A DNA stretch of 64,000 bases, from assembly GCA_964291265.2 (NCBI GenBank), contig OZ219747.1, positions 2,336,001 to 2,400,000 on the forward strand, given 5' to 3'. Origin of the DNA: Alphaproteobacteria bacterium (GTDB lineage: Bacteria; Pseudomonadota; Alphaproteobacteria; SP197). Within the stretch, counting starts at the first letter, position 1. The number at the start of each line of letters is the position of its first letter. This document shows, in pieces, positions 3,601-52,243 of this stretch. Made by a program: the position numbers and the translations under genes. The notes below the pieces were generated by a model. It had not been told where the DNA came from and ran no database searches. It was given only the letters and a program-made list of their open reading frames with translations.

Positions 3601-6600
3601 CTACATCGACAGGCCGCGGGACCGTCCACGCCTGCGGGCCTCGATCTCCCGGAGCGTCTCGGCCATGCGCCTCTCCCGCGCCGTCTCGTCATCCCAGGGC
3701 GCGCGTACGCATCCGCGCGTGAAGAGGGAGCGCATGTCCTGGCGGATCGTCGAACCGGCTGCAGGCGCTCCCTGCATCCCCCAGGAGCGGACCACGCGGA
3801 GCGTCACCCCGTCTCCCACCACGTCGTTGACGCCGGCCTCGACGGCCTCGACGATCGCCTCGACCTGCGCGGTGTCGCCCTCGAGCGGGGGCTGGACCGG
3901 GCCGGCATGCCGCACCATGGTCCAGCGTATCCTGTCGCCCGGAAGGACCCTCTCCTCGCAGGCGAAGGGGAAGGCGTCGTTGCGGGCGGGATACTGCCGG
4001 TCGCGTTCCCGCTGGCGCAGCGTCTCGTCGGGCCACAGGAGGCGCCGGCAGGTGACGTTGCCGGCAAGGGGGCGGAGCGTCTCGGCGTGGAGACTGCGGG
4101 TCTCTGTGCCGCCGACGGGACGAATGCGCAGGCGATCGATGACGTCGGGGCCGGTGACGTGGCTGACCATCTCGACAACCGCGTCGTGGCGGCCCTCTGC
4201 GTCGATCCAGCTGAGCCGGTCGCCGCGGAGCAGGGGCTCGGTCCCGTCCCAGCGGACGCTGCGGGAGACGTCGAACGGCGCCTCCCGCAGCTGCCGCATG
4301 GCGGTGCGGACCTCGAGGAGGTGGCGGGTCCGGCCTGCCTCCTCGCGCACCGCATCGTCCTGGGCCAGGCGTTCCGGGAGTGCCGCCACGATGTAGGCGA
4401 GGCGCCGGGGCGAAGCGCCCGCGGCGCGGATGTGGGCCTCCTGGTTCAGCGACCCTGCCTCCACGGCCTCCAGCAGCATCCGGGCACGGCGGCGCCAGGC
4501 GTCGGACAGCGCTGCGCTTCCCTGGAGGCCGGGTTGGAGAGCCAGGGCCTCCGCGACGAGCTCATGAGCCCGCTGGCGTTCACCGTCCCAGCCATCGAGC
4601 GTCTTGCGCCACGCGCTGACGGTGGTCCGGTCCTCCGCGGTAAGGCGCGGATCGTCCCGGAGCTGCCGCAGCGCCTCGCGCAGGGGCGCCATGTGGGGCG
4701 AATCGAGGGGATGGCGATGATGGTCCCGCACCTCCCCATTGATGGCGTCTGCCCGGCGCACGAGAGCCCGCAGGCTGTCGCCGAGGAGCATGGCGTCGAT
4801 GCGCTCGGCCTCGGTCTTGACGACATCCCCGGCGCCCGCCATGTCGCGGGCCGGCAGGCCGCCGGCCTTCCACGCGCCGGGGAGTGCACGACCTTCGGCC
4901 AGGAGCGCCGCGGCGTCGCGGCGCCAGAGGGCATCGCCCGGTTCCGCCGCCTCGCCCAGGCGGCCGGCGCGGCGGCGCCAGTCCGCGAGAACATCGAGGG
5001 CGGCGTCCGTCGCCATCCAGGAGGGCACCGAGGCAAGGCGTTGCTGGAAGGCATCGGGGGATGTTCCGAGGGCGCGAAGCTGCGCGGTGCGCTCGCCTTC
5101 GGGGATGGCGTCCATCGCCGCACGGGCTTCCTCTGCCGCCGCCGGGGCCACGGCGCGCCAGACCACACGGTCGTCGCCTGAGCCGCCGAACGTGGGCCGG
5201 TTCGCCTCGGCCTCCGCGAGGCGGGCAAGGGCTTTGGCGAGACGGCCGCGGTCACGGCGCCAGCGCCTGTCGTCATCGAGCCGGCGGACAAGCGTGCGCA
5301 CGGTTCCATCCGCCGTCGCGCCGTCGGCCACCGCCGCGGAGACCTCCTCGAGAAGGCCGGGCCAGTCAGCGAGGTCGCATGGCAGGCGTCCGGCGGCCTC
5401 GGCACGGTCCTCGATCTCCTTCACCCGCTGCAGAAGTGCGGCGCGGTCCAGGGCTCTGAAGGTCGTCTCGATGGTTGCCGCTGCCGCCGCGAGGCCGTGA
5501 CGGGCGTCGGCGAGGGCATCGAGGTGGCGGGCCTTCAGCGACCTGTCGGCCAGCATCGCCCGGGCGGCCGTCAGCAATGCCGCCGCCTCGGTGCGCCATG
5601 CCTGGGCATCGGGATGGTCTGCCACGATCCCGGGCCCCGTCTTCGCCAGGACCCGGGCCCTGGCGACGGTGGCCTCGGTCTCGCGGCGTTCCGCCTTCCA
5701 CCTGCCGTCGGCGTCCCGCCAGTCGGCCATCAGGTCGCGCGTTGCCTGCGGCGTGCCCTCGCGTCCGGCGAGATCCTCCAGGGCCGCCAGGAGCCGGGGG
5801 TAGTCCGCCGCGTCGAGGGGATGCACGCCGTCTTCCTCATGGGCCCGGTTGACGGACCAGGTGAGGGCGGCGAACGCCTGGCATGCGGCCGTCAACCGGG
5901 CTGCCTCGAGCTGTCTGACGACGCTGTCGACGGCGTCTTGGGCGCCCGCCATGTCGTCCGTGCGAGAGAGATGGGCGGCCCATTCCTCCACAAGCTTCCT
6001 GCCCTCCTCGATCAGGGCGCCCGCCCGTTCGACATTCTCCCGCGCGATGGTCGGACCCTCGCTGCCCTCGCGCAGCACCTCGGCGGCCCGCCCCGACCAG
6101 TCGTCGAGGCCGGTGAGGGCCGCGTCGGTGGCGCGCCACAGGGGCACGGCGCCGACCAGGGAAGCGAAGGCCTGGGCCGTCATGCCGCAGGCCGCGAGGT
6201 GGGCTCTGCGCTCGTGGTCGGCAAGGGCGACCACGGTCTCGAGGGCGCCGTCCAGGGCTTCGGCCCCGTCGCGCCACGCCCGGCGGTCCGGCGCGTCGCT
6301 GCGGAGGTCCGCGTAACGGGGCCTTGAGCGTTCGAGGTCCGCCAGCAGGCCGACGACCTCAGTCACGCGGCGGCGGTCGCGGCGCCAGCGCCCGTCGTCT
6401 GCCAGCCAGCGTTCCAGATGGCGGCCCACCGGATCGCCGGGTGCGGCGGCATCGACGGCACGGCGGATCTCGCTCAGCGTGCCGAACCATTCCGCGAGAT
6501 CGAGGGGCAGCCGGTCCTCGATGCGGGCCCGGCCAGCGATCCCGCAGACCCGCCACAGCAGCGTGGCGCGGTCAAGCGCCTCCAGTCTCTCGACGACCTC

Positions 6601-9600
6601 CCGGCCCGCCGTCACGATCCCGTCGCGCTCCTCCGGCATGGCGGCGATGTACGGACCATGAGGACCGTCCGTGTCAAGGAGCGAGCGCATGTGCCGCAGG
6701 TGAGCCTCCGCGTCACGCCGCCACCGCGTGACATCGGCATCCTCGGGATCGACCCCGCCCGCGCCATCGAGTGGCACGTGGTCTGCGAACCATGCTGCCA
6801 GCATGCCGACTCTCTGACGCGCCGACCTGAAGTCGTCGACGAGAGCGGTCTCCGTGGCATGGCGCGCCTGCCAGGCCTCCACCGCACGGCGTTCCTCCGC
6901 CGTCAGCCCCGTGGACCGCGCCAGGGCCGCGCCGCGGCGGGAGAGGTCCGCATGGTCCGCCAGGAGGGAGACCGGCACGGCCTTCTCCCGCGACCGCGTG
7001 AGCAAGGCACTCCAGTCGCGGGCAAAGCGCGCGGCATCGTCCTTCAGCCGCACCTTCTCCACACCGGCAAGCGCAGCCTCGAGGTGTCGGCGATCACCCT
7101 CCGGGAGTGCCGGCGCCTCCGCTCCGGCGAGCCGCCGCCGGGCGCTGTCGACAAGGGCCGTCCCCGCATCGCGCCACGTCCGCCAGGCCGGGCCGTCTCC
7201 TGCAGGGTGGCCTGTGGACCGGGCCGCCCATGCCAGTTCCGGCCAGCGCCGCGGCTGGTCCTGCAGGCCGGCGATGAGCTCCCGCACCTGGCGCTCCGCA
7301 GCGCGGGACGCTTCGTGGGCTCCAAGGCGTTCGTCGACGAAGGCGCGCATCTCGTCCGGCAGGTCCTCGACCGCCGCGAAGGCGGCAAGGCGCGCCATCA
7401 CCCCGGCATAGGCCGGAACCGACGAGGGAGGCGAACCCGACGCCTCCCGTTCCACCTCTTCCCAGTCGGTCACGACAGCGGCCCACGCATCGGGATCGAC
7501 GATCGGGCCGTCGAGATCCTCGCCCAGGGCCTCGAGCGCGGCGTCGGGCACGTCGGGCGAGGTCTCGAGACACTCGATCAGCGCCTCGCGGTCGTCCGTC
7601 AACAGCGTGAACCCCTGCGAGGCACGGCTCACCTCGACGTAGAACATCTCCCGGTTCGCCATGTGTCCGGCATCGAGGACGGCGATGACCTTCTTCGCCG
7701 TCTTCCCCTGGGCGCCGTGGACCGTGGAACTCCAGGCATGGTCGAGGTGGCGCAGGTGGGGATCGCTGCGGGACAGGGAGTACTCCGTGCCGTCGTCCGC
7801 CAGCAGCCGCACCCGCTCGGGCCCGATCGACAGCACGCGGGCTTCCTCGCCGTTGACCAGGGCCGGCGTGCGCCGCCGGGCCTTGCGGTTGCGCGTCCAG
7901 CGCACCCGGTCGCCGGCCCGGATCTCGATCTCCACGGTCTCGTGCACCCCGAGGTTGCGGGCGGCGTTGCCCGAGGGCCGGAAACGCCGTTCCCGGCCGT
8001 CGGCATGGTCGAGGACGACCCAGCCGTCGCCGACCCCGGTGATGGTGCAGACATCGTCGGCACGGCAACCATAGGCGTCGCGGTGGAAGACCACCGTGTC
8101 CCCCGGTTCGTAGTTGGCGAGAACCGAGGCCTCGATGCGGGTGTAGCGCCGGTCGACGAGGCGCCGGATGGTGAGCGTCCCTCCCGTCAGCACGCCTTCC
8201 TGCGCCAGGCCCTCGCGGATGGCCGCGTTGATCTCCCGGCGCACGGCATGGGTCGGGGCGAGGACGGCGCAGGCCTCCCGGTCCTCCGCCCCGAGGGCGA
8301 GCCACGCCCGGGCCGCCTCTGCACCGAGATCCTCCACCCGGTGTTCCGTCACCCGGTTGGCGAGCCGCGTCATGGCCTCGCCGGCCTCGCCCTCGCGGGC
8401 CCGCACCACCGCCTCCTTCAGGTCCGCATCCTCCTGGCGCAGCACCTCGTCCATCACCGCCGTCGCCATGCCGCGCTTCTGCATGAGGGCAAAGGGCTGG
8501 CCGGCGTCCACCGCCTTCAGCTGCGCCGTGTCGCCGACAAGCACCACGCGAGCGATACCAAGGGTTCCGGCCAGGGCGAGCAGCCTCTCCATCGCCACCG
8601 TGCCGATCATCGAGGCCTCGTCCACCACCAGCACCCCGCCGCCCATGTCCTCGCGGGCCCGCTCCAGGCGGTCGGGGTCCGAGAGATCGCCGTAGCGCAC
8701 CAGGAACCACTGAAGGGTGCGGGTCGGGACCCCGGCTTCCCTCTCCAGCACCCGCGCCGCGGCGGCCGAGGGAGCAAGGGCGATGAGCGGGCGCCCCTCC
8801 ACGAGGCCCGCCACCTCCCTCAGCATCGTCGTCTTGCCGCTGCCGGCCCGGCCTTGCACGCCCACCACCACATCGCCGGACCCCAGGACGTGACGCACCG
8901 CGTTCGCCTGCCCGGCGGTCAGTCTCGCCGCCGCAAGGCGGGCCGTCACCGTCTCTTCCGGGACCAGGGCGACGGCCAACGCCCGGCCCTGCCTCACCGC
9001 CTCCAGGATGCGCCGTTCCGCCTTGACCGCCCGGTCGGTGACGAAGGAACGGTCCGAGCCCCGCAGGACCGTCTCCAGCAACTCCCCTTCCGCGACGAGG
9101 CGCTCGATCGCCGCGTCGATCTCTTCCAGCCGGTAGCGTCCCGGCGCATGGCCCAGGACCAGTGCCCGGATGTCGCGAGCCGGGATCACCGTGCGTCTCT
9201 CCTCGACGTGAGCCACCGCCCGCGCCACCGCCTCGAGGACGCCCGTCTCGGGCTCGGCGATGCGTTCCGCCGGAGCCGAGGGGCGGAACCGGCGCCGCCG
9301 CACTACGGTCTCCACCACCGGCTCGAGGTGCGGCGCCGCAGGCGACCGCCGCCGACGCCGGCGTTCGTTCTTCGTCAGCTCCGCTTCCGGGTCCACCGGC
9401 AGCGCCATCTCCCGACCCGTCTCCGGTTCGACCGGCCTCGGCGGCCTGAGCGCCGCCTCGTCGCGCACAAGGCCCAGGGCGCGCGCCCGGGCGCGCCACT
9501 GCGGCACCAGCTCGGCAAGGCCCGCCTCGACCTTGCGGCGGCGCGTGTGGAGCGTCGCCTTCTGCGTTGCCTCACGCGTCGCCGGAAGCCCGTGCTTCTC

Positions 9601-24835: not shown

Positions 24836-26619
24836 CCCGGATTTGTCACCAAGTTTCCTATTGATGGGGATGGGGTTTGTGATATATGCACAAGACCAAT
24901 GAGTTACATACACCAAGGAGCCCATCCACATGGCGACACAGTGTTCAGCACAACAACTGGAGTTTGAAGGTCTCGGACGGCGGCAGATTGTGGCTAATTT
25001 CGATGGTGGCCGCATGACCTCCGACGGTGGTGCGCTTCTGTTGCGGGAAGCAGACAGGCTTTTCAACGTGACGGAGCGTGTCGCTGGCGCTTTTGTTGAT
25101 TATCGTGATCCCAGTCGCATTGAACACGATGTGACGACACTGGTGGCGCAGCGCATCATCGCTTTGGCTCTGGGTTACGAGGGTCTCAACGATCATGACC
25201 GTCTGCGTGACGACCCTGCTCTGGCCCTGGCTTGCGGGATCGACGATGTGGAGGGAGAGAGACGGGTTCGCGAGCGGGACCGTGGACATGTGCTGGCGGC
25301 CTCGAGCACGCTGAACCGCCTGGAACTCGGCGATCCGCATGAGGCGAGCCTGGACCGCTACAAGAAGATCGTGGCCGATCACGAAGCACTGGACTGTCTT
25401 CTTGTGGACCTGTTTCTGGAGAGCCATGCGGAACCGCCCAAGGAGATTGTTCTGGATCTTGATGCCACCGACGATCCGGTGCATGGCGACCAGGAGGGCA
25501 AGTACTTCCACGGCTATGACGACCACCATGGCTTCCTGCCGCTGTTCGTCGTCTGCGGCGAGCACATCCTGCGCTGCCGGTTGCGGACGGCCGACCATGG
25601 CGCGGCGGATGGCTCGGTGGATGAGCTGTCACGGATCGTTGAGCAGATCCGCGGCACGTGGCCCCGGACACGGATCGTGGTGCGGGGGGATGCCGACTTC
25701 GGCACGGACGACATCATGGTCTGGTGCGAGGACCATGGTGTCGACTATGTCTTTGGATAGGGTCAGAATCCTCGCTTGAACAGCATGGTCACGAAGGCAC
25801 TCAACAAGTCGAGGCGGCGTTGTCTGGTGTCCGGCAAGCCATCCAGACGGTATCGGGATCTGCGGTATCGCACGCAGAAGTCATGGTCCCGCGAGCGGCG
25901 AGTGGTGGCCAAGGCGGAATGGCTACCGGGACCGCGCGGCAAGAACGCTCGTTACATTGTGACGAGCATCTCCAGGAAGGAGGTCGGCGCTCGGGAACTC
26001 TATGAGCAGTTGTACTGTGCTCGGGGAGACATGGAGAACCGGATCAAGGATCAGCAGTTGTGGCTGTTCTCCGATCGCACGTCGTGCCATGTCATGCGGG
26101 CCAACCAGCTGCGCATGTACTTCTCGGCCTTTGCCGGCGCCCTCGTCGACATCCTGCGCCGTGTCGGCCTGCACGGCACCGAGTGTGCCCGCTGGCGCGT
26201 CGACACCATACGCTCCCGGTTGTTCAAGCTTGCCGGCAGGGTGACGAAGACGGTGCGCCGGCTTCGCCTCTCCTTTGCCTCGATCTTCCCCTTGCAGGAG
26301 GTGTTCGCCCGCACTCTCGTCAACCTGCGTGCCGCGGCCCAGGCGCCGCCGCCGGGATAGCTTGTGCTGCATCCCATCACAGTCTGATCACAGCGTCTCC
26401 CGAAGGCGTCGCCAGGGGTGTGCCTGGCGCATGTCCCGGCATAGACACGAACGCCAAAAAACGGCTTTCGGCTCCCTTGGCCTGCCAAAATGAGCCGAAA
26501 AACTATCCCAAATGCGACACGATTCCGCCAACAGCGCAATCAAAGTGAACCTTGTCTGCGCCCGAGGCTGAAGATTACGCCATCATTCCACTATCATTCC
26601 CCTTGGTGACGGAACCGGG
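24836..26619 (+). mobile_element. IS1380-family insertion sequence
   Basis: TIRs CCCGGATTTGTCACCAAG / CCCGGTTCCGTCACCAAG; CTAG on both flanks (24832-35, 26620-23). Confidence 0.88.
24930..26360 (+). pseudogene. IS1380 transposase with in-frame TAG at 25758-25760
   Basis: FDGGRMTSDGG, LDLDATDD, RGDADF, YCARGDMENRIKD; both ORFs share one frame. Confidence 0.88.
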
Positions 26620-26885: not shown

Positions 26886-28088
26886 GTGATGCCAAGAATT
26901 AGTCGTGGAAAAGGACGAGAGCGACGACTGCGTGAGAGACTCTTTGACGCAGGGAACAATAGATGCCCAATATGTCTTTCCGTCTTTAATCGATCAGATG
27001 TATCGAATGGAACAAGCGTGACGCTTGAACACGCGCCACCCAAGTCATTAGGAGGAAATCCGATATGTTTGACCTGCAAGGCTTGCAACAACAAGACAAG
27101 CAAAGCAGACCATCACGCATTCTTGTCTGCAAAAGCTAGAGATGAGTGGGCGGGAGGCCAAGGATCTCCCATTGACGTGAATTTTCTGGGCCATAAGAGA
27201 AAATACAGGTTTATCCCCAAAAATTCAAACGCTCCGTTTCCGGCACAGAAACACCTGTTTCAAAGCGGCATCATTAAACTAGATGCGTTACCATCGAAAT
27301 TGGACTTGTGTGCATATGAAGGAATCAGTTTCAAGATTCCACACCGCGACGACTTTGAATTTGTGAGCATGATTAAATCCGCCTATCTAATGGTTTTCGC
27401 TCTAATGGGTACACATGGATATCAATTCGCTGAAAATGTTGGAGTTCGTTTAATCAGAGAACAAATAATGAACCCTGAAGAGAAAATACTTAAAGGCGGT
27501 TTTGTCGGTGAAATGAAAGTTGATTCCGAGGACTTCCGCAAAATTGATAGGACAATAGTTTTCTTGCTCAATACAAGCCCCTATCCAATTTGGATAGTGC
27601 CGATGTCGCATGGTAGGATAGTTGTTTTGCCATCTGGCAACGCAGAACCAATCAATGAGTTAGTGATGAGTCCGAAACGAGTTGATGTTTCACTTGGCAA
27701 TTTGACTGGGTGGATATCGAGAAAGTTCAGTGATTCATCTGCAATTGGAGGCCCTATCAGAGAGTGGGGGAGCGACTTGCAAAAAACATCACTGGTGGGT
27801 ACTTTTGCCGGACCTATTCCCACAAGTAGGGAGCATTGGCGGTTTATTGTTGTTTTTTGTCAGGCGCAAAGGTATGTGGCATTGCCATTTTCTCCAATGG
27901 ACTGTCTTGACGAGGACTGTTCTGATGATTTAGATTTCATCAATGTAGTTGATATGTTTGGCGAGCCGGAGGTTAGGGGGAGAAAATTGGATAGGAGTCA
28001 ACTCACAACTACCGGCTTTTCTCATGCGAGAGAAATTACTATGGTCCGCAAGACAGGGAATGATGAACAAGGCTTTAAGGAGGATTAA
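26886..28088 (+). CDS. HNH-endonuclease-domain protein, low-GC cargo
   Basis: CPIC...TLEHAPPKSLGG...CLTCKACNN; AGGAG RBS; visibly AT-richer than its flanks. Confidence 0.75.
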   Translation: MMPRISRGKGRERRLRERLFDAGNNRCPICLSVFNRSDVSNGTSVTLEHAPPKSLGGNPICLTCKACNNKTSKADHHAFLSAKARDEWAGGQGSPIDVNFLGHKRKYRFIPKNSNAPFPAQKHLFQSGIIKLDALPSKLDLCAYEGISFKIPHRDDFEFVSMIKSAYLMVFALMGTHGYQFAENVGVRLIREQIMNPEEKILKGGFVGEMKVDSEDFRKIDRTIVFLLNTSPYPIWIVPMSHGRIVVLPSGNAEPINELVMSPKRVDVSLGNLTGWISRKFSDSSAIGGPIREWGSDLQKTSLVGTFAGPIPTSREHWRFIVVFCQAQRYVALPFSPMDCLDEDCSDDLDFINVVDMFGEPEVRGRKLDRSQLTTTGFSHAREITMVRKTGNDEQGFKED

Positions 28089-49086: not shown

Positions 49087-49489
49087 GGGAATCAGACGGA
49101 CGGATGGCCGCTCTTCCCCCATCGGGAAGGGAGGAAAGTCCGGGCTCCACGGAAACATGGCGCCGGGTAACGCCCGGCGGGGGTGACCCCAGGGACAGTG
49201 CCACAGAAAGTAGACCGCCTCCGGCCGCAGGGCCGACGGCAAGGGTGAAAGGGTGCGGCAAGAGCGCACCGCGGCTGCGGCAACGCAGACGGCATGGCAA
49301 ACCCCGCCAGGAGCAAGATCGAGTAGGGGCGGCACGTGGTTCCACGAGGCCCGTTTCCGGACCCCGCCGCCCGGGTTGATCGCGCGAGGCGCGCGGTGAC
49401 GCGCGTCCCAGATGAATGGCCATCGGCCGCCCTCGGAACCTTCAAGGGGGGCGGATCACAGAACCCGGCTTACAGTCCGCCTGATTCCC
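49087..49489 (+). ncRNA. rnpB: RNase P RNA, class A
   Basis: GAGGAAAGTCCGGGCTCC, AGTGCCACAGAAA, ACAGAACCCGGCTTA; P1 pairing GGGAATCAGACGGAC/GTCCGCCTGATTCCC. Confidence 0.97.
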
Positions 49490-49702
49490 GCCGCCGCCCC
49501 TGGCGATGACATGGCCGGGGGCGAATCCCAACTCTCAGGCAGAGGAATTTTATCCACCGGCCAGGTCGACAACACCGTGAAGAGCCCGATAGTAGGCGAA
49601 CACGCTACAAGATGATGTCACATCCTGGAATGTTACCCCCAGCATATTGGGAATTGCTGGTGCCAAGGCGGGCTGCTCAAGACATTGAAATTTCGTAACT
49701 AC

Positions 49703-51181
49703 TCACCCCTTGTTAGGGTCTGGTTGTCCGTAGTGCTGGTTGAGGATGTCTACGGCCTTTCCGTCGAGGGCGATGTGGATGGCGACGTGAGGGTTGTAGC
49801 CGAGTGCGTCCATGGTGGTGAGGTAGCTTGAGCCGCGGCACCATGCTTTGGCGTGGGGCATGGTACGGAAACATCCGGACACCTTGATCTTGACCTTTGT
49901 CATCCTGATCTTCTGCTCTCCGGTATTATTTGTGAAACTGACATTGGGGTCCTTCATGAAGCGCAGGACGGACTTCTCGTGTTTCACGAGACGTTCATGC
50001 AGGTTGTGCGCGTCGGACTTTGCGATGCGTCCCCGTTTTCCTTTCGTCCGTGGCGGGATGTCGGGCAGTTCCCTGGCGCCCTGGGTGAGGATGGTGCGGT
50101 AGCGCTTGCGCACGGCCCGGCGGTCGGCCTCGTTCAAGGTCTTGGATGCGCTCTTGTTGACCCTGCGGGAGACCTCGCGCAGCAGGCTTTTCATCAGTCG
50201 CGCCCAGCGGTAGCCGTTGGACTCGACGACGAAGGTCAGTTCGCGCAGGAGATGGCTGCCGCACAGTTGGTGGCGGCATTGATCGTAGCCCATGTAGGCA
50301 GCCCAGCAGTCGTGGATCAGGACGCCCTTGTAGCGCGGGATGATGCCGATCTCTTCGATCGCCTCCCGGCCGCGCTTGGGGTGCGGGAACTTGCACGTCA
50401 GGGTGCCGTCGGTGACGACATGGAGCCATTGGGTCTTGCCGGCGACCCGGAAGCCGGTCTCGTCGACATGCAGGGCCGGTTGTTGCAGGAGATGGGCCAC
50501 GGCGGCCTCCTCCCATGATGCGAGGGCATCGTGAAAGCGCCGGACATAGCCGAGGCAGGTCGCCTCGGAGAGCTTGATGCCGGAGATCGCGTGCACGAGC
50601 GAGACGGCACGACGCAGGGACAGCATCTGGGCGATCAGCAGGTTGATGACGAGGGCCTGGATGCTGACGCCATACTGCAGGGGGCCCGGCATGTTGTCTG
50701 GGAACCGGCCCTTGGTCCGGGTCCGGCACTTCGGGCATTCCTTGATCTCGGCTTCGACGCGGCGCTCGACGACTTCGAACACGATGTCGTAGAGGACGCG
50801 GCACTCCCGGTCGACGGGGTCGACATCGTGGAGGTCGGCGCCGCAGGCGTCGCAGGCATCGACGACGATCGTCTCCTCGACGGTGGTCGTGCGCAGGTTG
50901 TCGCCCGTCTGCTGGTTCGGTTTCGGGCCCTTGCCGTGGCTCCCGGTGCGCCTCGCGCTCTCGTCCTTGTCAGTCTGCGATGGCGGCAGACCGGAGTTCC
51001 GGCTTGTCTTGCGTGTGATCTTCTCCATGAGCACGGTCAGCAACAGCTTTATCAGCATCAGCATGCCGCGGAAGAGCTCCTCGCACTCCTGGTTGACCTT
51101 GCCCTGCTTGCGGAGATCCTGGAACTGCTTCTGGAAGACGTCGGCCTCCTGGCGCACAGACGTGCCGTTCACGCTCGCCAT
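49703..51181 (-). CDS. IS66 transposase
   Basis: SRNSGLPPS, CDAC/CPKC, HVDETG, IHDCW, HQLCGSHLLREL, TNNTGEQKIR; stop lies within the TIR. Confidence 0.95.
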   Translation of the reverse strand: MASVNGTSVRQEADVFQKQFQDLRKQGKVNQECEELFRGMLMLIKLLLTVLMEKITRKTSRNSGLPPSQTDKDESARRTGSHGKGPKPNQQTGDNLRTTTVEETIVVDACDACGADLHDVDPVDRECRVLYDIVFEVVERRVEAEIKECPKCRTRTKGRFPDNMPGPLQYGVSIQALVINLLIAQMLSLRRAVSLVHAISGIKLSEATCLGYVRRFHDALASWEEAAVAHLLQQPALHVDETGFRVAGKTQWLHVVTDGTLTCKFPHPKRGREAIEEIGIIPRYKGVLIHDCWAAYMGYDQCRHQLCGSHLLRELTFVVESNGYRWARLMKSLLREVSRRVNKSASKTLNEADRRAVRKRYRTILTQGARELPDIPPRTKGKRGRIAKSDAHNLHERLVKHEKSVLRFMKDPNVSFTNNTGEQKIRMTKVKIKVSGCFRTMPHAKAWCRGSSYLTTMDALGYNPHVAIHIALDGKAVDILNQHYGQPDPNKG

Positions 51182-51846
51182 GACGACGCCTCCACCGCCA
51201 TGACAGCCGCCAGCACGGCGAGCCGCTCGCCTTCGGGCATCGTCCGGTAGCGCCGCGCCCAGCTCTCTGCGAGGCGCTTGATGCGCTGGCGGTCGATCGA
51301 GTTCCTGCCCGCACACGTATGCCAGTGCGGCCGGCCCGGTGCGAAGTTGAACCACAGCTTCTCGGTGACAACGCAGGCCTGGTTGTTGACCTGGACCTCG
51401 GCCGAGCGCCAGCCGGCGAGGTGCGTGTCGTAGAGCCGCGAGGGATAGCCGGAGATCATCACCTGGCAGGGCAGCGACGTCAGGATGTCGAGGAGCGCAA
51501 CATGGTCATCGTCCGTGCAGTCGAAGCGGTAGCGGCGCTGCGACCGGCGCGTCGACTGCACGTAAGGCGGGTCGCAGTAGACCAGCTCGCGGCCCTGGAA
51601 GGCGAAGGTCTCGAGAAAACGCAGGGCGCAGCCTTGGTGAAGCTCCACCGGATAGTCACAGCGGAAGGTGTCGATCGCCCGTCGGTTGAGGTCGATGCCG
51701 ATGCTGCGTAGCGCCGGAGGCTTGCGCTTCATGATCGCGCCGCCCCCAAGGAACGCCTCGATGTACACGTCATGCGGCGGCATGGCCGCGACGATCGCCT
51801 GGCTCAGACCCGTCGTCGCCTTCGATCCGTACCATGCCGCCATCAA
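51169..51846 (-). CDS. Short Dam/D12-class N6-adenine DNA methyltransferase
   Basis: YGSK, YIEAFLGGG, YCDPPY, MISGY; ATG at 51843; overlaps transposase start by 13 bp. Confidence 0.9.
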   Translation of the reverse strand: MMAAWYGSKATTGLSQAIVAAMPPHDVYIEAFLGGGAIMKRKPPALRSIGIDLNRRAIDTFRCDYPVELHQGCALRFLETFAFQGRELVYCDPPYVQSTRRSQRRYRFDCTDDDHVALLDILTSLPCQVMISGYPSRLYDTHLAGWRSAEVQVNNQACVVTEKLWFNFAPGRPHWHTCAGRNSIDRQRIKRLAESWARRYRTMPEGERLAVLAAVMAVEASSWRA

Positions 51847-52170
51847 TATCTCCGACGCAAACCGCCCCGATGGCCAGCATGTAGAGTGCCCCTCCTACAA
51901 TGTCAAGCGCATATCTCCAGAGGATTGGAAAGGCAGCCAACCGCTGTGGATGATTGCATCATCACGGGGACAAAACCTGGTCATACAAGGCCGGAACGTG
52001 GAGCTGAAGCCGAAGATCGATCCGCTTCTTGTCAGTCGGAACACGCACATCCGATCATCGGCAGCGAGCAAGTGAAGGCGGCAAGAGAAAATGCCGGATC
52101 CGAACCCGTCAGGAAAAACGATCCGTCATCAGTAGGGGGTGAGTAGTTACGAAATTTCGAGCTTCCTGAT

Positions 52171-52211
52171 TTGACATCCCAAAGTTTCCCAAGTATTCCC
52201 AAGATATTCCA
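52171..52211 (+). promoter_or_regulatory. dcw promoter with candidate MraZ boxes
   Basis: TTGACA at 52171, 17-bp spacer, TATTCC; TCCCA repeated every 10 bp (52177, 52187, 52197). Confidence 0.7.
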
Positions 52212-52243
52212 AACGGTGAGGCGGCGAAAACGGTCGAGCGGGA

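Follow-up and report, generated by a model that had tools for sequence, protein, structure and literature searches.

Insertion sequences (IS) of the IS66 family carry terminal inverted repeats (TIRs) that begin with GTAA and are flanked by 8-bp target site duplications (TSDs). In the ISBst12 group tnpA and tnpB are missing and only the transposase gene tnpC is present, and among three-gene IS66 elements a tnpA-tnpB pair that faces tnpC from the opposite strand is an unusual layout. In IS10 and IS50, expression is controlled by Dam through methylation of the promoter. A methylase can also act on its own promoter: that of CfrBI is silenced when a C within reach of its -35 box, overlapping it, is methylated, as stated in the available part of the source (10.64898/2025.12.04.692298). 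A described relative of the protein considered here is Upf31 of the IncP-1beta plasmids pBP136 and R751. According to the available passages of Elg et al. (PMC11997246), Upf31 is an autorepressor that lowers the activity of its promoter about 50-fold, an effect that needs its C-terminal domain and is lost in the mutants Y180A, F185A or W198A. The same passages report that GATC methylation was not detected and that induced Upf31 gave zero SMRT signal in a methylase-free strain, with the gene on an expression vector and motif finding on. They propose a CATCG repeat as the Upf31 operator and say that the IncP-1beta inverted-repeat clusters had been described without a function; IS copies or restriction sites beside the repeats are not mentioned in them.

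The window, i.e. the whole stretch of 64,000 nucleotides that was analysed, contains a 2456-bp IS at positions 49695-52150, flanked by rnpB (49092-49488) and mraZ. Its ends are perfect 15-bp TIRs, GTAACTACTCACCCC, located at 49695-49709 (transposase end) and 52136-52150 (promoter end), and both are bordered by the 8-bp TSD GAAATTTC (49687-49694 and 52151-52158). Because this TSD is itself palindromic, a repeat finder returns arms of 23 nt. Both the GTAA start of the TIRs and the 8-bp TSD are thus as in the IS66 family. Contigs of three out of three runs, which belong to a single study and one of which is possibly the source of the assembly, joined position 49686 directly to 52151 and skipped 2464 nt (the element plus one TSD), revealing an unoccupied insertion site. 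The element holds two genes and a 300-nt leader, and neither tnpA nor tnpB. The tnpC gene (49703-51181, minus strand) encodes a 492-aa IS66-type DDE transposase that matches PF03050 (E 4e-42) and scores 252 bits with NF033517, above the cut-off of 180. Its start overlaps by 13 nt the upstream gene, also on the minus strand (51169-51843, ATG at 51843), whose 224-aa product is assigned by Pfam to PF02086 (D12/Dam-like) and is called here the Upf31-like protein. An earlier note made from the sequence alone had described a complete 2456-bp IS with perfect TIRs and a TSD and a methyltransferase-like gene overlapping the transposase start, and both parts of that description hold. The element shares with ISBst12-type IS66 an IS66 transposase, the GTAA ends, the 8-bp TSD and the lack of tnpA and tnpB, and differs from it in the added upstream cassette. 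The nearest named IS66 records are 32-36% identical to the window transposase; the nearest named transposases, ISGst1 and ISGka4 according to the record annotation, are 32-33% identical. The name ISGka4 is applied to another family in the part of PMC8024623 that was available.

Inside the leader, a 59-nt stretch (51933-51991) matches, at 97% identity, the end of an IS110-like element that the genome also contains, and is a probable relic of such an element. The IS110-like element occurs at four genomic places, one of them inside the 5' end of the Upf31-like gene of another copy. An outward promoter-like match (52029-52058, chance level 0.2) lies near the IS end and faces mraZ, and 20 nt beyond the IS end begins a TTGACA (region 52171-52215) that precedes the dcw operon.

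Across the whole genome we located 18 left and 18 right ends of this IS, of which 15 pairs could be matched by their own 8-bp TSD. Nine copies are full-length with both genes intact and six are interrupted, four of these within the Upf31-like gene. The element is a real, active and recently multiplying IS66. A second IS66 family of about 2442 bp in the same genome, called here family B (copies at positions 613783, 1238263, 1600202 and 2478985, among others), also has a cassette with an Upf31-like gene. The two Upf31-like proteins are 62% identical and the two transposases only 33%. Four of the seven family-B copies, two of them identical, share a truncation of the gene at codon 133 and yet are flanked by TSDs; the gene is thus dispensable in cis, as would be the case for a trans-acting repressor. 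One family-B copy has a 9-bp TSD.

The window protein and pBP136 Upf31 are 42% identical over 220 aligned residues (E 1e-61), the C-terminal domain included, and they share their length, the DPPY motif and the C-terminal helices with an aligned tryptophan (W195 in the window protein, W198 in Upf31). They differ in that C177 and S182 of the window protein stand at the positions of Upf31 Y180 and F185, the latter being Phe in 91 of 120 relatives. With two of the three aromatic residues of Upf31 repression changed, the window copy may repress weakly. A structural model (pLDDT 84) shows a Dam-type core at residues 1-169, a low-confidence linker and a helix pair at 182-223. The core adopts the alpha-class fold, motifs I and IV included, and its best fold matches are Mcbe1, DpnM, Dam and T4 Dam (Z 15.1-16.1, rmsd 1.9-3.2 over 136-150 aligned residues). 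Residues 6-168 of the model match residues 12-270 of Dam with the target-recognition domain, which in Dam enzymes is placed between motifs III and IV, missing: only 55 residues separate the motif FLGGG (31-35) from DPPY (91-94). Here too the earlier note, which had counted about 55 residues between motifs I and IV, little room for a recognition domain and a C-terminal helix, was borne out by the model. Compared with the Dam/D12 enzymes, which have the same motif order, the catalytic region is some 100 residues shorter, the C-terminal helices are an addition, and the score falls below the TIGR00571 cut-off. Of 181 distinct proteins from IS elements, plasmids and phages, 180 have DPPY intact, and the glycines of motif I and D51 are nearly invariant among 120 close homologues. 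The IS clade has a beta-hairpin that differs from that of the phage and plasmid members. The homodimer prediction scored 0.17 (mark 0.42). A sequence search of solved structures returned only spurious TPR-like matches and a weak one to DpnM; the protein atlas offered only automatic 'DNA methylase' names, and the PADLOC matches, including a weak one to PD-Lambda-5_B, were to generic methylase models.

Upstream of the Upf31-like gene we predict a -35 box TTGACA (51901-51906, minus strand) and, 17 nt after it, a -10 box TACATG (51878-51883, minus strand) whose position is deduced from the spacing. Because this -10 box lacks the last T, a promoter scanner missed the cassette promoter; in relatives the box is mostly TATGCT. 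The predicted operator, TGTAG-N10-CTACA (51880-51899), follows the -35 box, and the template-strand C of that box (51904, plus strand) lies 5 nt beyond the operator arm. No other strong site was found in the element, its ends included, and the operator is present at 17 of the 18 left ends in the genome. Extra operator-like matches in coding regions (+140 and +1630) were discarded as likely codon by-products, and the window element has no counterpart of them. An alignment of 93 distinct IS promoters, anchored on the -35 box and two bases of the left arm, shows TTGACA followed by CATAG-N10-CTATG, of which the window site is a symmetric variant. The right arm, which falls within the -10 box, is the unbiased part of this alignment. 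Conservation is limited to the half-sites and does not extend to the 10-nt spacer between them, and the pair 9/26 covaries, with 69 complementary cases vs 55 after shuffling, a comparison between related sequences that yields no true p-value. pBP136 and a Xanthomonas plasmid carry CATCG-N10-CGAT/GA in the same promoter position, so TTGACA followed by palindromic half-sites 10 nt apart is an arrangement shared with Upf31. The IncP-1beta form is CATCG-N10-CGATG, in contrast to TGTAG or CATAG half-sites, and it occurs in arrays instead of as one operator; the window gene further differs in being part of an IS that is devoid of KorB and in being coupled to tnpC. The operator type tracks the protein clade, a match that may come from shared ancestry alone.

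The distribution of the gene was examined in the best 80 of 410 genome matches and the best 80 of at least 496 metagenome matches; the 80 genome loci stem from about 17 assemblies and are not independent. A recognisable transposase lies directly downstream of the gene in 137 of these 160 loci, so that pairing is not sporadic. It belongs to the lineage of the window transposase in 79 loci, to classic tnpC in 51, to other IS66 lineages in 6 and to an IS4 in 1. The other loci comprise two with unclassified long ORFs, one with a glycosylase-like gene and three rearranged loci, and no ORF of 100 aa follows the gene in 17 loci, several of them at contig ends. TIRs with a matching TSD surround the gene in 53 of the 80 genome loci, and start-stop overlaps or short gaps tie it to tnpC. 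We found tnpA-like and tnpB-like ORFs on the opposite strand at the far ends of all four classic elements inspected (L003, L011, L025 and L062), and NCBIfam confirmed tnpA and tnpB in L025 and L003. The window element itself has neither gene, but the proposal of the earlier note that the methyltransferase stands in place of tnpA/tnpB fails as a general statement, given the 51 loci with classic tnpC and the tnpA/tnpB of the elements inspected. In a tree of 26 proteins the Upf31-like protein of the window falls into one group (support 98/92) with the proteins of two classic elements whose transposases are only 25-26% identical to that of the window, which indicates that the cassette moves between transposase lineages. 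More widely, the gene heads an IS4 and transposases 21-34% identical to the window transposase, and in phages and plasmids it is found without a transposase. Values of dN/dS were 0.18-0.39 in 17 of 20 comparisons, the other three being saturated.

The gene is rare, with 2 occurrences in 400 other sampled genomes of the phylum. In 14 of the 400, more distant transposases were present and the gene was absent from the stretch examined, some of them having little room upstream. In five genomes chosen for having the gene, it lies upstream of 24 out of 24 full-length transposases of the close lineage. About ten in-frame fusions of the gene to the transposase were seen, each in a single sequence; programmed fusion as a rule was rejected, as two of the three inspected proved to be deletions across the junction. 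In two loci (L144 and L161) the cassette precedes an ORF of 450-530 aa, without NCBIfam match in the one scanned (L161), that possibly represents another transposase family. In P2-like phages (L169-L223) the gene sits after replication gene A and before a variable cargo that extends up to the portal gene and includes HicAB, an IrrE/PIN pair or a PapB-like gene. No common downstream effector gene was found in the phages, where the gene mostly follows the P2-like gene A. Some distant members are fused to, or lie beside, C5-methylase-like or DpdA domains (P0133, P0134, P0138-P0140, P0142, P0143 and P0146; loci L226, L231 and L236).

The phage and plasmid relatives revealed a position rule. An operator site lies near the gene in 39 of 81 such loci, often in clusters on both sides. 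Among 194 eight-base flanks of these sites, 94 contain a 6-bp palindrome, against a background of 5.3% in the same regions and a mean of 15.6 (maximum 27) in shuffles, an excess of restriction sites of about ninefold. The register is fixed for each site, with CTGC[A]G in 14 of 14 cases, GGT[A]CC in 13 of 13, TGG[C]CA in 11 of 11 and CTCG[A]G in 5 of 5, where the bracket marks the base at +5, i.e. 5 nt past the half-site. The offset differs between palindromes, and the bracketed base falls on +5 in CTGC[A]G, CTCG[A]G, TGG[C]CA, CGG[C]CG, CAG[C]TG, G[A]TC or GAT[C], C[C]WGG and CTGA[A]G. We take the modified base of GGT[A]CC to be the KpnI base, and the register of GATATC presumably differs from the base modified by EcoRV. 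The bracketed bases are those of the rows of table S4 of Blow et al. 2016 (PMC4752239) in the part available, where two misfits appear: GT[A]C stands against six m4C rows for GTAC, and GGTACC has no detected row. When every position was scored with these motifs, after dropping four -35 arms, the +5 base was marked in 93 of 176 arms and the next best position in 23. The motif list was picked after the flanks had been seen, a choice that can raise the count but does not single out any position. In chance arms of this genome the +5 base was marked in 8 of 154.

The rule holds in both clades (74/140 and 25/48) and in 25 of the 29 protein clusters with a site. In pBP136 (L251) the CATCG-N10-CGATG repeats form five clusters (18-149, 6080-6197, 9271-9449, 25191-25235 and 26990-27125), most of whose arms are flanked by in-register SalI, PstI, XhoI, GGCC or GATC sites. 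With the same motifs, +5 is marked in 25 of 37 clustered arms of this plasmid vs none of the 12 isolated ones. A collection-wide scan, some contigs of which were already in the first set, gave 23 PstI sites in register vs 3 off it and 14 vs 5 for KpnI; the gene was within 1.2 kb of 18 of 37 in-register sites vs 0 of 8 off-register sites. A set of 44 new, held-out flanks was weaker (12 of 44 palindromic, A or C at +5 in 70%), and a control made of sites at a distance from the gene proved contaminated, with +5 marked in 24 of 123, probably because of remote clusters. In several phage contigs (L302, L307, L316, L317 and L325) a lone intergenic operator flanked by an in-register site lies apart from the gene, possibly as part of a small regulon. 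No description of the position rule, or of an IS66 with an Upf31-like gene, was found in the literature searched, mostly non-subscription; the IS66 and Upf31 families themselves are known kinds.

In the IS elements the two arms behave differently. In 88 of 88 left arms, +5 falls on the template-strand C of the -35 box, a count that is forced by the -35 consensus and so is not independent proof of engagement. The right arms are off the rule, with +5 marked in 2 of 84 and 6-bp palindromes in 3 of 142 flanks. Right arms (e.g. 51871-51876 in the window; also L113, L122 and L129) have GATC at +6 in 23 of 85 cases and GGCC at +5 in 7 of 85, the window included. Both arrangements put a methylatable base at +7, and the left +7 base is also fixed, as A; either the register is shifted in the IS clade or the pattern comes from shared ancestry.

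Taken together, these data lead us to read the element as an IS66 with a portable cassette of promoter, operator and gene, whose Upf31-like product acts as a dimer to repress itself and the coupled transposase, with a probability of roughly 0.6. The Upf31 homology, the palindrome conserved over the promoter and the coupling to tnpC support the self-regulation that the earlier note had offered as one option. The dimer would bind the split palindrome in its own promoter and shut off both genes, presumably anchored on the operator by its basic C-terminal helices. Each methylase domain, having no recognition domain of its own, could then reach the base 5 nt past the half-site; in the IS, gripping or N4-methylating the -35 template C would block the promoter. 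Since the left +5 base is a -35 C and the right arm is off the rule, we read the IS cassette as the autorepressor of a two-gene operon that may use its pocket on that cytosine. The odds between self-methylation and binding without methyl transfer are about even. If a single base next to a rare 10-bp split site were methylated, this may be compatible with the Upf31 SMRT result (PMC11997246, available passages), because motif finding with a vector-borne gene would be expected to miss so rare a site. In a naive cell a burst of transposase would be followed by repression of all copies in trans. Control by promoter-base methylation is shared with M.CfrBI (10.64898/2025.12.04.692298, available part), but there, as with Dam in IS10 and IS50, a short site is methylated genome-wide, whereas the fold in the window is encoded by the element and seems to be tied to a split site that is rare.

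A simpler account, in which the protein merely covers the operator as a steric autorepressor and its methylase pocket is idle in the IS, is unlikely but the most serious competitor. It agrees with repression by Upf31 without detected methylation (PMC11997246, available passages), with the absence of the +5 rule from the IS right arms and with an operator that already overlaps the -10 box; it does not account for a DPPY kept in all but one of 181 proteins, the nearly invariant motif I glycines and D51, or the low dN/dS. Intact catalytic motifs without a recognition domain, together with the rare C5-methylase or DpdA fusions and neighbours of distant relatives, would also suit a methylase of low specificity that shields the element or its host from restriction. 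A broad methylase of this type, which is what the earlier note envisaged for restriction evasion, should have given a signal when Upf31 was induced in the methylase-free strain (PMC11997246, available passages), and protection leaves the ninefold excess of restriction sites beside operators unexplained, so we regard it as improbable.

We give even less credit to a transposition cofactor that would replace TnpA/TnpB or be guided by the transposase to the ends, as the earlier note had also suggested. The 24 of 24 association in the five selected genomes and the in-frame fusions are what such a cofactor would predict, but the gene co-occurs with tnpA and tnpB, heads unrelated transposases, IS4 included, and occurs alone in phages and plasmids; moreover, the IS ends have no strong operator, truncated family-B copies have moved, and related transposases of 14 other genomes lack such a gene in the stretch examined. 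Least probable of all is a neutral passenger captured once. Its rarity (2 of 400 genomes) and, weakly, the four of six interrupted copies broken inside the gene fit that idea, which conflicts with purifying selection and with repeated exchange between transposase lineages in which promoter and operator were kept.

Beyond repression, a fixed distance between palindrome and methylatable base would be the expected product of a tethered base-flipping pocket. Since the restriction-site excess is hard to square with protection only, foreign methylation of the +5 base is probably of consequence for the family members of phages and plasmids, where it would likely alter binding. We therefore put forward, tentatively and at somewhat less than even odds, that the Upf31 family is a methylation-reading switch: a dimer on CATAG or CATCG-N10 sites would probe the base 5 nt outside with its Dam-type pocket, with phage and plasmid arrays of varied restriction-modification sites around the gene that detect methylases of the host or of invading phages, and IS66 and IS4 elements that aim the pocket at their own -35 cytosine and so control transposition. 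This role is drawn from the relatives, not from the window copy.

If these readings are right, the annotation 'DNA adenine methylase' would conceal thousands of regulators (3098 matches among 3783 candidates scored), and IS elements would carry a portable throttle that is exchanged between transposase lineages. The position rule gives the IncP-1beta inverted-repeat clusters a testable role, and mobile DNA would have a means of detecting the methylases active in the cell around it.
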